Assembly: GCA_016866475.1 (NCBI GenBank)
Contig: VGMF01000003.1
Span: forward strand, 13,442 to 77,441
Source of the DNA: Chlamydiota bacterium
Lineage (GTDB): Bacteria > Chlamydiota > Chlamydiia > Chlamydiales > RGXB01
Length of the DNA: 64,000 bases
Direction of reading: 5' to 3'
Both the position numbers and the translations under genes were made by a program. Below the pieces are notes generated by a model. The model was given only the letters and a program-made list of their open reading frames with translations, made no database searches and was not told the origin of the DNA. This document shows positions 28,545-31,500 of this stretch, one piece after another (positions within the stretch are counted from its first letter, which is position 1; every line of letters starts with the position of its first letter).

Positions 28545-31500
28545 AAATCTAAAGATTAACGTTAAAAACAGTCAGCTTAACCAGGTCCTTAAAGGCATTC
28601 GTCAAAAAAAAGACGATTCCGACGAGGCTGTAGCAAAAGATAAAGAGGTGGAACATACACCTGTTGTATCAGCTGTAACGGAAAAACCAGCACCAAAAAA
28701 AGCTTCCAGAGCTAAAAAGGTTGCCGCACCGAAACCACAAGTGGAGGCGGACCAACCAACACAACGAGAGCCAGAAGTTGTACATCCAAAAACCGAAACT
28801 CATCCAAAAGAAGAACGTCTTTCCAAGATAGAAAAGGAAATCTTCAAAGAAGAGGTTTCTGAAAAATCATTTGAGGAAGAAGTGCCCACCAAATCAGAAA
28901 AACCTGCAACCTCTTTCGAATCAAGACCGCAGCGTTCTTTAGAATCACAACAAAAGCCAACGAGAACCTCCCACACTAGTGAAAGACCTGCACGCTCAGC
29001 AGGCTTTCAACCTCGAAGTTTTAATTTTGAGAAACCGGCTGACGGATTCAATCGCCCCTCATCAACAGATTTTAGGCAAAGGGTCGATAGCACCGATCGA
29101 AATCATGTGTCCGGGAGAGCGGAACCCCGCTTCCCGAGCGGTTACGACGCACCAAGCAACTTTGACGCAGGATCTACCACAAAAGGAGCGGGTAACACCG
29201 AGGCCCCAACTGCAGAATCTCCGCGAGGCTACGTAACAGAAAGAAGAAGCTATCCTCCACGAGATGGCCAAGAAAGAAGACCTTATTCACCACGAGAGGG
29301 AGATGAGCGCAGATCCTATTCCCCACGAGATTCGGGAGAAAGGGGTGCTTATCCTCCACGCGAAGGTGGCGAAAGAAGACCTTATCCTCCACGCGAAGGT
29401 GGTGAAAGAAGACCTTACCCTCCACGCGAAGGTGGCGAAAGAAGACCTTATCCTCCACGCGAAGGTGGTGAAAGAGGACCTTATACTCCACGCGAAGGTG
29501 GTGAAAGAGGACCTTATACTCCACGCGAAGGTGGTGAAAGAGGACCTTATACTCCACGCGAAGGTGGTGAAAGAAGACCTTACCCTCCACGCGAAGGTGG
29601 TGAAAGAAGACCTTACCCTCCACGCGAAGGTGGCGAAAGAAGACCTTACCCTCCACGCGAAGGTGGAGAGAGAGGACCTTATCCTCCACGTGAAGGTGGA
29701 GAGAGAGGACCTTATCCTCCACGTGAAGGTGGTGAAAGAAGACCTTATCCCCCACGCGAAGGTGGCGAAAGAAGACCTTATCCCCCACGCGAAGGTGGCG
29801 AAAGAAGACCTTACCCTCCACGCGAAGGTGGTGAAAGAAGACCTTATCCCCCACGCGAAGGTGGTGAAAGAAGACCTTACCCCCCACGCGAAGGTGGTGA
29901 GAGAGGACCCTATCCTCCAAGAGAAGGCGGGGAGAGAAGACCTTATCCTCCAAGAGAGGGGGGAAGACCCGGTTTTGGACAAAGGCCCCAGGGTTCACGC
30001 CCCCCATTTCAAAGGACAAGTTTTGGTCAGGTTGCAAACTTTCCTCCTCCGTTGACAGAAACCGGTTCAAGAAGGTCTCTTCCTCCCGCTAAAAAGGGAC
30101 CACCGACTAAAGATGAAGAGAAGAAAAAGCGAAGATTAAACGAACCTTCGAAACATTTTGACAGCCGTGATCGTCATGGATTGAGAGATGACGAAGAGGG
30201 TTTCCACCGTCGCAAATTCAAGTCACACACCCACAAATCTCATTTCGAAGAGGAGATCCTCCGTCCAAAATCTATCGCGGTTACTTTGCCGATTTCTGTA
30301 AAGGACCTGGCCTCGGAGATGAAATTAAAAGCGGTCGATGTAATTTCCAAGTTGTTGACCCATGGTATCAAATGCATGCTCAATGATCCCTTGGACGACG
30401 AAGTTGTTGTTCAGCTTGTTGGACAGGATTTTGGGTGTGAAATTACAATCGATACATCGAAACAAGATCGTCTTGATATCACAGGAAAATCTATCCTCGA
30501 AGAGATCGCAGGAACAGATCCTTCTCAATTGGTTTTAAGACCACCCGTCGTTACGTTCATGGGGCATGTCGATCATGGTAAAACCAGTTTGATTGATGCC
30601 TTAAGGAAAAGTAATCTAGCTTCCAAAGAAGCCGGTGCCATCACGCAACATATCGGCGCATTTAGCTGCCAAACGCCTAACGGGGACATCACTATTCTTG
30701 ACACCCCTGGCCATGAGGCATTTACAACGATCCGATCACGTGGCGCAAGCGTCACAGATATTGTTGTTCTTGTTGTTGCAGGTGACGAGGGATTCAAAGT
30801 ACAGACAGAAGAGGCCATTCGGATTGCCAAAGAGGCTAAATTACCGATGATTTTTGCGATCAACAAGATGGATAAAGAAGGATTTGATCCTGAAAAAGTT
30901 TACCGTCAGATGTCTGATCGTGATCTCTTACCAGAGGCATGGGGAGGAGAGATTCCCACGGTGAACTGTTCTGCGCTTAATGGACAAGGGATCTCTGAAC
31001 TTTCGGAACTGTTGGCTTTGCAATCGGAAATTCTTGAACTCAAGGCTAATCCAGAGTCTAGGGCTCGCGGAACTGTCCTTGAATCACAAATTATCAAGGG
31101 TCTAGGTCCATCTGCTACTTTGTTGATTCAAAACGGAACCTTGAGAATTTCAGATGCGATAGTTTTTGGTGAAGCTTACGCAAGAGTTAAGACAATCCAA
31201 GACGAACATGGCAAACAATTAAAATCGGCCGGCCCTTCACATGCAGTACGGGTCACAGGTCTATCTGATGTCCCCTCTTCCGGAAGCGACTTCATCGTTG
31301 TGAAAAGCGAAAAAGAAGCAAGGAAAATTACTGAGCAGAGAGAAGCTGAATCTCGTAAGAACAGACTGCGAAAGCAATCGTTCAACCTGGGCTCTATGCT
31401 GCAAGCTAATGCTGCTAGACAGGAGAAGAAAATTTTCAACGTCATTGTCAAGGCAGACGTGCAGGGTTCACTTGAGGCGATTAAAGATTCCCTTTTAAAA

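Follow-up and report, generated by a model that had tools for sequence, protein, structure and literature searches.

Bacterial translation initiation factor IF-2 begins with an N-terminal region that is variable and dispensable for the core functions of the factor, yet serves as a strong and rather nonspecific anchor to the 30S subunit (PMC4611024). In Escherichia coli, this region includes a repetitive hydrophilic segment (residues 98 to 157) that has been described as helical (PMC4611024). A 2026 survey of approximately 800 IF2 homologues reported bacterial N-terminal extensions of 102 to 756 amino acids (aa) that are disordered and predicted to be droplet prone, evolving at a mean omega of 0.44, with purifying selection in local pockets, and found that loss of extensions slowed growth under temperature and pH stress (PMC12919033). 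The text of that survey (PMC12919033) makes no mention of Chlamydiota or of IF-2 tandem repeat arrays, and our literature search did not find a paper on a chlamydial IF-2 repeat. Among the enzymes that act on ribosomal RNA (rRNA), the C-terminal 40 residues of E. coli RluB are predicted to be disordered and are poorly conserved (PMC3919597). Here, we describe an in-frame tandem array of an 11-residue unit, PREGGER(R/G)PY(P/T), in the N-terminal extension of IF-2 encoded by infB of a Chlamydiota bacterium (GTDB lineage Bacteria; Chlamydiota; Chlamydiia; Chlamydiales; RGXB01). The gene lies in a 64,000-nucleotide (nt) stretch of contig VGMF01000003.1 (positions 13,442 to 77,441 of the forward strand; GenBank assembly GCA_016866475.1), referred to below as the window, and all coordinates are positions within it.

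Parsed in the infB frame in 33-nt steps, the repeat region covers aa 230 to 482 of IF-2, a total of 253 aa. Its core consists of 18 head-to-tail 33-bp units encoding PREGGER(R/G)PY(P/T) (29356 to 29949, plus strand). Four degenerate leading units precede the core (29224 to 29355, plus strand), the last three of which have positional counterparts in the related locus L001, and a truncated terminal unit follows it (29950 to 29982, plus strand); the same end unit is found in L001, L002, and L083, so that the 3' edge is conserved in relatives. Tandem Repeats Finder, applied to 28 to 32 kb, called a single array at 29348 to 29952 with a period of 33, 18.3 copies, 93% matches, 0% indels, and a score of 951, and the infB array thus has the head-to-tail organization, unit size (10 to 100 bp), and high identity of a minisatellite or variable-number tandem repeat (VNTR). 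No frameshift or stop codon interrupts it in the infB frame, and its initial interpretation as a translated part of IF-2 is supported. A first-pass annotation, made by a model from the DNA letters and their open reading frames (ORFs), had placed the 18 units at exactly the positions that the frame parse and Tandem Repeats Finder recover, and had given the order of the variants correctly as RRPYP three times, RGPYT three times, RRPYP three times, RGPYP twice, RRPYP five times, RGPYP, and RRPYP. It recognized three degenerate units (29257 to 29355) and the truncated unit but missed the fourth degenerate unit (29224 to 29256), and its estimate of about 22 copies stands, whereas the region is longer than the approximately 240 aa it proposed.

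The 18 core units comprise 12 distinct DNA sequences that encode only three peptides. Ten of the 33 columns are variable, eight of them in a synonymous manner (seven third positions, plus position 4, which covaries with position 6 in a synonymous CGC-to-AGA switch) and two that alter the encoded residue (R or G at position 22; P or T at position 31), as expected from the initial description of units that differ mainly at synonymous positions. A higher-order pattern of about 99 bp, which had been read from the runs of variants, was rejected: identity is 0.930 at a lag of 33 and 0.889 at a lag of 99, and mismatches at a lag of three units are not below those of shuffled unit orders (p = 0.93). 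As a separate observation, a Shine-Dalgarno-like GAAGGTGG is present in 17 of the 18 core units and an anti-Shine-Dalgarno-like CCTCC in 12 of the 18, and both kinds of sites recur along 29356 to 29949 every 33 nt, which is approximately one ribosome footprint.

With moderate confidence, we favor a reading in which this array is a selectively maintained, disordered, and multivalent anchor to the ribosome or its rRNA, with a drifting copy number. The array is a chain of approximately 22 copies of one short linear motif, presenting 23 tyrosines and 61 arginines in a frame of proline, glycine, and glutamate, and would fill in chlamydiae the role that the N-terminal region of IF-2 has as a ribosome anchor in E. 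coli and Geobacillus. Its copy number would drift through replication slippage or unequal recombination, mainly in the center of the array, while the peptide motif would be retained by selection. We infer both the binding target, rRNA or the ribosome, and the benefit of multivalency; binding to RNA or the ribosome is proposed mainly because the repeat type recurs on proteins that act on rRNA, which lends indirect support to the RNA binding that the first-pass annotation had suggested along with condensate formation.

This recurrence emerged from an array-only HMMER search of the full library, which returned 237 proteins at an E value of ≤1e-3, with E values down to 1e-63. The first-pass annotation had called for a search for such repeats in other proteins, and arrays with nearly the same unit are found on RNA- or ribosome-associated proteins of other phyla. 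Among the bacterial matches other than IF-2, the best have a nearly identical unit, such as PREGGERKPYA in the alphaproteobacterial RluB P0124. Our own count over three Pfam tables, which covered 47 of the 237 matches, gave 22 with at least one Pfam domain, of which 19 are proteins associated with RNA or the ribosome: eleven have the S4 and PseudoU_synth_2 domains of RluB-type enzymes, two are SpoU rRNA methylases, one is an RlmL/THUMP methyltransferase, and the others are one each of a DEAD-box helicase, a DbpA-domain protein, a protein with a weak S1 match, a Nop protein, and an XS-domain protein. Named members include the 23S rRNA pseudouridine-2605 synthases of an alphaproteobacterium and of Laribacter hongkongensis. 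Long N- or C-terminal arrays are carried by the RluB-type proteins P0124, P0128, P0123, P0127, and P0130, among others, from Alphaproteobacteria, Laribacter, and metagenomes, and one RluB-type 90% cluster spans 423 to 555 aa, a spread that suggests copy-number variation in the RluB-type arrays too. We informally define this group as tandem units of approximately 9 to 13 aa that combine [ED]GG with [RK]P[YFW] and are appended to an RNA- or ribosome-binding protein; the window array, itself the query that retrieved the others, has the features of this REGGER(R/K)P(Y/F/W) group. Separately, P0211, an IF-2 with a Firmicutes-type N terminus (MDKKYRVNELAKDL...), carries its own seven-copy array of the 11-aa unit GDRKPYGDRQQ, indicating that basic-proline-tyrosine tandem repeats in IF-2 also arose outside the Chlamydiota. 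We also observed five proteins (P0122, P0137, P0138, P0141, and P0149) in which a conserved N-terminal region of approximately 400 aa without a Pfam match is combined with long C-terminal arrays of similar repeats, in some cases with an acidic stretch between the two.

The sole PDB match to the array is Thermus thermophilus uS4 at approximately residues 32 to 44, a marginal match (E value of approximately 0.05 to 0.1) that is possibly due to chance. The uS4 segment ERRPYPPGQHG and the repeat unit have the exact heptapeptide ERRPYPP in common, and we keep this as a possible lead to an rRNA-contacting mimic rather than as evidence. Elsewhere in the window, the motif was not found in any frame, and no rpsD was found in the window either. 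A broader proposal, which we regard as tentative and rather doubtful, holds that the unit binds rRNA autonomously, as a module not recognized before, and is deployed in multivalent arrays on IF-2 in a large clade of environmental chlamydiae and also, independently or by transfer, on RluB, SpoU- and RlmL-type methyltransferases, and DEAD-box enzymes of Proteobacteria and other phyla, and that it may imitate the conserved ERRPYPP loop of uS4. If this were true, the unit would define a class of bacterial RNA-binding repeat that is both new and widespread and would offer a handle on the function of the IF-2 N-terminal extension.

Within the Chlamydiota, at least 10 independent assemblies among the relatives of the window have in-frame arrays of 13 to 22 units. 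A scan for internal periodicity in the best 120 homologues identified related repeats in many environmental chlamydial IF-2 N termini, with periods of 8 to 38 aa and units such as GGYPPRQQ, RPPYPPRDG, and GGARPPYQQ, as well as SSY-x-PRQ in Rhabdochlamydia-type proteins. The tyrosine context in these chlamydial repeats is consistently Y-P-P-R or Y-x-P-R. N-terminal lengths among the 120 homologues range from 243 to 687 aa. In a distance tree built from the conserved C-terminal body, the repeat-bearing sequences occupy a single large clade. Disordered N-terminal extensions of IF-2 are a known feature, of which the array is a lineage-specific form that is common among database relatives, and the window clade has the most regular version of a lineage-wide theme. 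The comparison with other Chlamydiota IF-2 proteins that had been called for at the outset therefore gave arrays that are lineage-wide in environmental forms and variable in copy number. The array is not unique to this genome: IF-2 proteins of environmental chlamydiae widely carry the same or a related array, and NCBI already lists the protein as an ordinary IF-2. Among the loci compared was L030 (CAMAUB010000095.1), titled 'MAG: Chlamydia trachomatis isolate MaH-04nov19-12', whose IF-2 is 55% identical to the window protein and ranks among loci of environmental Chlamydiae metagenome-assembled genomes (MAGs); its species label looks doubtful.

We modeled IF-2 with AlphaFold2 using an alignment of 37 sequences. 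Residues 20 to 573 have predicted local distance difference test (pLDDT) values of 31 to 51 and no secondary structure, with values of 32 to 42 in the array itself, and the IF-2 body has pLDDT values mostly of 70 to 90 and regular secondary structure from E579 on. The array and the rest of the N-terminal extension are therefore predicted to be disordered up to approximately residue 578, as had been anticipated from the sequence, and together with their variable sequence and length this lack of a stable fold is what characterizes a disordered, lineage-specific IF-2 extension. The five residues R, P, G, E, and Y make up 93% of the array (R, 24%; P, 23%; G, 20%; E, 17%; Y, 9%), corresponding to 61 arginines, 59 prolines, 51 glycines, 42 glutamates, and 23 evenly spaced tyrosines. 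With a net charge of +16, 42% charged residues, and an isoelectric point (pI) of 10.2, the array is a weakly basic version of the polyampholyte that had been proposed. Membership in the RGG/RG-box class was considered and rejected, since the unit has no RGG and RG occurs in only the 6 RGPY-type units, although the array may behave in the manner of an arginine-rich RNA-binding tail.

This composition bears on the first alternative, in which the array is a condensate scaffold with tyrosine and arginine as stickers and glycine, proline, and glutamate as spacers. Its main role would be to make IF-2 phase separate, in the presence or absence of RNA, into initiation hubs or stress-responsive assemblies, and not to anchor the factor to single ribosomes. 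We consider this unlikely as the explanation of the array, even though several observations are consistent with it: the sticker-like residues are abundant and the tyrosines are evenly spaced, the region is predicted to be disordered, and periodicity differs between lineages while tyrosine and arginine content is kept, as would be the case for a function at the level of composition. A disordered region of eIF5B is also said, in the title of one paper (PMC10680144), to nucleate granules. Moreover, IF-2 extensions are generally high in droplet propensity (PMC12919033). However, the exact unit is conserved across lineages, including the positions of its prolines and glutamates, which is beyond the needs of a purely compositional function, and because the repeat type recurs on enzymes that modify rRNA as monomers, the property held in common is more likely to be RNA binding. 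A condensate scaffold and a ribosome anchor are not mutually exclusive.

Copy number was compared among short-read metagenome assemblies drawn from 90% protein clusters. Proteins P0001 and P0280, with 99.8% identity, are set apart by a single 11-aa unit inside the array, P0005 and P0292 are 99.9% identical with a 22-aa difference inside the array, and P0005 and P0288 are 98.9% identical with differences of 22 and 11 aa, again inside the array. Exact indels of 11 or 22 aa in near-identical proteins of relatives support VNTR-like behavior and amount to the copy-number polymorphism by which a coding VNTR is recognized, in line with the original proposal of the array as a VNTR candidate. The window DNA is approximately 7 to 8.5% different from L001 and L083, and the 19 and 13 units of L001 and L083, respectively, are therefore to be read as between-species differences. 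Compared with L001, the window array keeps its edge units in the same positions, and it is the center that differs in unit count.

Such variability would also be expected of a neutral or nearly neutral product of slippage, that is, a tolerated expansion serving as a flexible spacer whose motif has no sequence-specific function, an alternative that we judge distinctly unlikely. In its favor, copy number varies from 13 to 22 in relatives and changes between proteins that are 99.8 to 99.9% identical, some chlamydial lineages have no such repeat, and adjacent units are the most alike. Neighboring core units differ by 2.29 mismatches versus 3.24 in shuffled order (p = 0.0009), which points to local duplications, and three identical units are consecutive. 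The omega values of bacterial IF-2 N-terminal extensions have also been called near neutral (PMC12919033).

Selection on the peptide argues otherwise. The pooled Nei-Gojobori ratio of nonsynonymous to synonymous differences (pN/pS) is 0.127 for the 18 core units of the window, 0.166 for the 13 core units of L001, and 0.099 for L002, in which all 13 core units are distinct in DNA and pS reaches 0.65, as expected of units that are old and in which the peptide has been kept. Variation is free at third positions, yet the peptide is retained, which indicates constraint at the protein level, and as these are third positions of the IF-2 frame, the IF-2 frame is the frame under selection. In P0003, a relative that is 82% identical overall, identity to the window is 90% in the array, 52% in the pre-array segment, 80% in the post-array linker, and 93% in the G/C-terminal body; in P0011, from a distant lineage, the corresponding values are 81%, 14%, 27%, and 58%, although identities between arrays are somewhat inflated since any unit aligns with any other. 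In the distant relative, the array is thus better conserved than the catalytic body and far better than its flanks, and the consensus unit is literally one peptide in the window clade and the P0011 lineage. In its arginine codon families, too, the array of the window clade agrees position by position with that of L081, a locus of the P0011 lineage: both have CGY at codon 2 and AGA at codons 7 and 8, whereas arginine codons of the window outside the array are mixed (CGC, 63; AGA, 52; CGT, 45). This position-specific pattern in both lineages favors common descent of the unit over convergence, and concerted evolution alone cannot hold one peptide in separate lineages. These sequence patterns show that the array is old and under purifying selection on its peptide, and is not a fresh neutral minisatellite. 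The recent slippage put forward in the first-pass annotation is accordingly borne out in part: local duplications and changes in copy number fit with it, whereas the unit itself is old, has pN/pS values of 0.10 to 0.17, and is common to lineages with 58%-identical cores.

A third alternative, which we consider very unlikely, casts the proline-rich P-Y-P-P-R sequence as a multivalent ligand for a protein partner such as NusA, a ribosomal protein, or a chaperone. Short linear motifs rich in proline commonly serve for docking to other proteins, and nusA adjoins infB and overlaps it translationally. In E. coli, the N-terminal domain I of IF-2 contacts the KH2 and AR1 domains of NusA (as cited in PMC12919033). 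However, the reported contact with NusA is made by a folded N-terminal domain I and not by a repeat, a lineage-specific partner fails to explain why the repeat type is also present on unrelated RNA enzymes of other phyla, and no candidate partner was identified in this analysis. Finally, it is highly improbable that the array or its copy number is an artefact, or that the constraint lies in the mRNA as periodic structure or GAAGGTGG pause sites, because, although short-read contigs often end in the array and most core units contain GAAGGTGG and CCTCC, the array is in frame in many independent assemblies, its longest exact repeat of 89 bp is resolvable, third positions are free while the peptide is kept, and the array mRNA fold is no more stable than shuffled sequences (z = −1.16, with 14 of 100 shuffles at least as stable), a nonsignificant result on which we rejected mRNA structure as a constrained feature.

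Returning to the array as a ribosome or rRNA anchor under selection, several points weigh against it. The RNA or ribosome target is drawn from guilt by association and from analogy with E. coli IF-2, and these features of the sequence would suit a condensate or a protein-docking role just as well. A canonical RGG box is absent from the array. Simkania-like and Parachlamydia-like IF-2 proteins have K/E/P/A/S-rich tails instead of the motif, which means that the motif is not essential for chlamydial IF-2 in general. Between 13 and 22 copies are tolerated, and the length of the array is thus only loosely constrained. Copy-number differences could partly be assembly artefacts, and array-to-array identities are inflated, as noted above.

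The array is also a hazard for assembly and annotation. An exact repeat of at most 89 bp means that it can be resolved with k-mers of at least 91 or with 150-bp reads, yet it remains fragile. Two JGI metagenome contigs, L084 (1 to 816) and L085 (1 to 531), both end inside the array, and on them the gene caller annotated an off-frame HAKVAREDL... ORF as a gene of 271 or 176 aa and started IF-2 at an internal TTG, leaving a protein of 662 aa. Many cluster members are likewise C-terminal IF-2 fragments of 573 to 664 aa. The repeat creates three long spurious ORFs in the window, all present in the ORF listing: one of 298 aa at 29174 to 30070 (minus strand), one of 263 aa at 29264 to 30055 (plus strand) that consists of HAKVVKEDL repeats and whose equivalent frame is the one called as a gene in the JGI contigs, and one of 231 aa at 29287 to 29982 (minus strand). 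Both the risk of assembly error and these spurious frames had been foreseen; public contigs do break in the array, and a gene caller did take the spurious frame. Scanning metagenome contigs for strain variants by exact matching to a stretch at the array's 3' edge gave one unrelated chance match (L086).

The gene itself is a conventional infB. It encodes a protein of 1,167 aa from a TTG start (28537 to 32040, plus strand), with an 8-nt overlap with the nusA stop. The protein matches the TIGR00487 equivalog of NCBIfam at 664.8 bits against a cutoff of 424.4, with residues 577 to 1165 covering positions 3 to 584 of the 587-position model. Pfam places IF2_N-like at 585 to 627, GTP_EFTU at 672 to 826, EF-G_D2 at 843 to 921, IF-2 at 946 to 1057, and GTP_EFTU_D2 at 1088 to 1155, and GHVDHGKT at 676 to 683 is invariant in 37 homologues. 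This full-length equivalog match, the order of GTPase domain, domain II, IF-2 domain, and C-terminal beta-barrel, and the nusA-infB-rbfA-truB neighborhood identify the protein as IF-2, in agreement with the initial assignment of infB, which had also put the G domain at about aa 670. No Pfam match falls in residues 230 to 482, and NCBIfam gave only one spurious 17-bit match there. The nearest loci belong to Chlamydiia or Chlamydiae MAGs (L001, 92% protein identity; L002, 82%). With its start read as methionine, the window IF-2 is identical to NCBI MBM3196933.1 (P0306), 'MAG: translation initiation factor IF-2 [Chlamydiae bacterium]', from a 161-kb contig. The gene is thus already public and ordinarily annotated, and the array itself is unannotated.

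Around the array, the protein is divided into four further parts. The N-terminal tip, MAKNLKxNVKNxQL (aa 1 to 30; 28537 to 28626, plus strand), is conserved: among 37 diverse chlamydial IF-2 proteins, A2, K3, N4, L5, K6, K10, N11, and Q13 are each at least 90% conserved, and identity of aa 1 to 30 to the window is 83 to 100% inside the window clade and 37 to 57% in distant clades. AlphaFold models the tip with low confidence, with one 5-residue helix at 14 to 18; possible interpretations of the tip are a short docking motif and a leftover of the IF2N domain. The tip is followed by a poorly conserved, disordered pre-array segment rich in E, P, S, A, and K (aa 31 to 229; 28627 to 29223, plus strand; pLDDT of 33 to 43). 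Downstream of the array are a basic linker that is predicted to be disordered (aa 483 to 577; 29983 to 30267, plus strand), with a net charge of +10 and a pI of 10.5 as computed on aa 483 to 580, and the folded IF-2 body (aa 578 to 1167; 30268 to 32037, plus strand), which comprises G1/IF2_N-like, G2 GTPase, G3, C1, and C2 domains and is supported by AlphaFold, Pfam, and NCBIfam.

Directly upstream of infB is nusA (27261 to 28544, plus strand) and directly downstream is rbfA (32046 to 32429, plus strand), the L081/L083 orthologue of which has the Pfam domain PF02033 RBFA. The gene order in the window is rpsA-nusA-infB-rbfA-truB, an arrangement shared by L081 and L083, where the genes carry Pfam labels. 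Farther away, the window contains two pairs of tRNA genes, tRNA-Tyr(GTA)/tRNA-Thr(TGT) at 13144 to 13306 (minus strand) and tRNA-Val(TAC)/tRNA-Asp(GTC) at 16632 to 16790 (plus strand); other than these tRNAs, no Rfam family in the window reached threshold.

Most IF-2 extensions are too irregular to dissect, and the one described here reduces to a single selected 11-residue motif in approximately 22 copies. Such a regular motif makes the ideas of a nonspecific ribosome anchor and of a condensate directly testable. In practical terms, the array breaks short-read assemblies and misleads gene callers into truncating infB and adding a false ORF, and it could serve as a length-polymorphic marker for closely related environmental chlamydiae.

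Compared with known systems, the window IF-2 resembles the N-domains of E. coli and Geobacillus stearothermophilus IF-2 in position, variability, and flexibility. In contrast to the helical hydrophilic repeat of E. coli, it has a near-perfect 11-residue array of R, P, G, E, and Y without predicted structure, the unit of which is conserved across deep chlamydial lineages. Within the general class of IF2/aIF5B/eIF5B extensions, the approximately 667 aa before the G2 domain fall inside the range of 102 to 756 aa, and the extension is likewise disordered and lineage specific, but the constrained "pocket" is here a whole 253-aa array of one motif. The tails of RluB, of SpoU- and RlmL-type methyltransferases, and of DEAD-box and DbpA proteins carry nearly the same unit, also in tandem and variable in length, but on other host proteins and in other phyla, and their arrays may be N- or C-terminal.

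More distant parallels come from other repeat-bearing proteins. RGG/RG boxes and the tyrosine/arginine sticker-and-spacer domains of the FUS family are expected to bind RNA and to phase separate; like them, the window array places arginine and tyrosine regularly in a glycine-rich disordered chain, but its unit has no RGG, is high in proline and glutamate, is bacterial, and keeps a strict 11-residue period. In Chlamydia trachomatis, hctB, encoding Hc2, has an in-frame variable-number repeat that is used in strain typing. Both are coding tandem repeats that differ in copy number between close strains, but the protein (a histone-like DNA binder), the unit, and the lineage are different. A precedent for lineage-specific N-terminal repeats in IF-2 is reportedly found in Stigmatella and Myxococcus, in which the unusual, repeat-rich N terminus is said to be rich in alanine, proline, valine, and glutamate, whereas the array of the window is rich in arginine and tyrosine.

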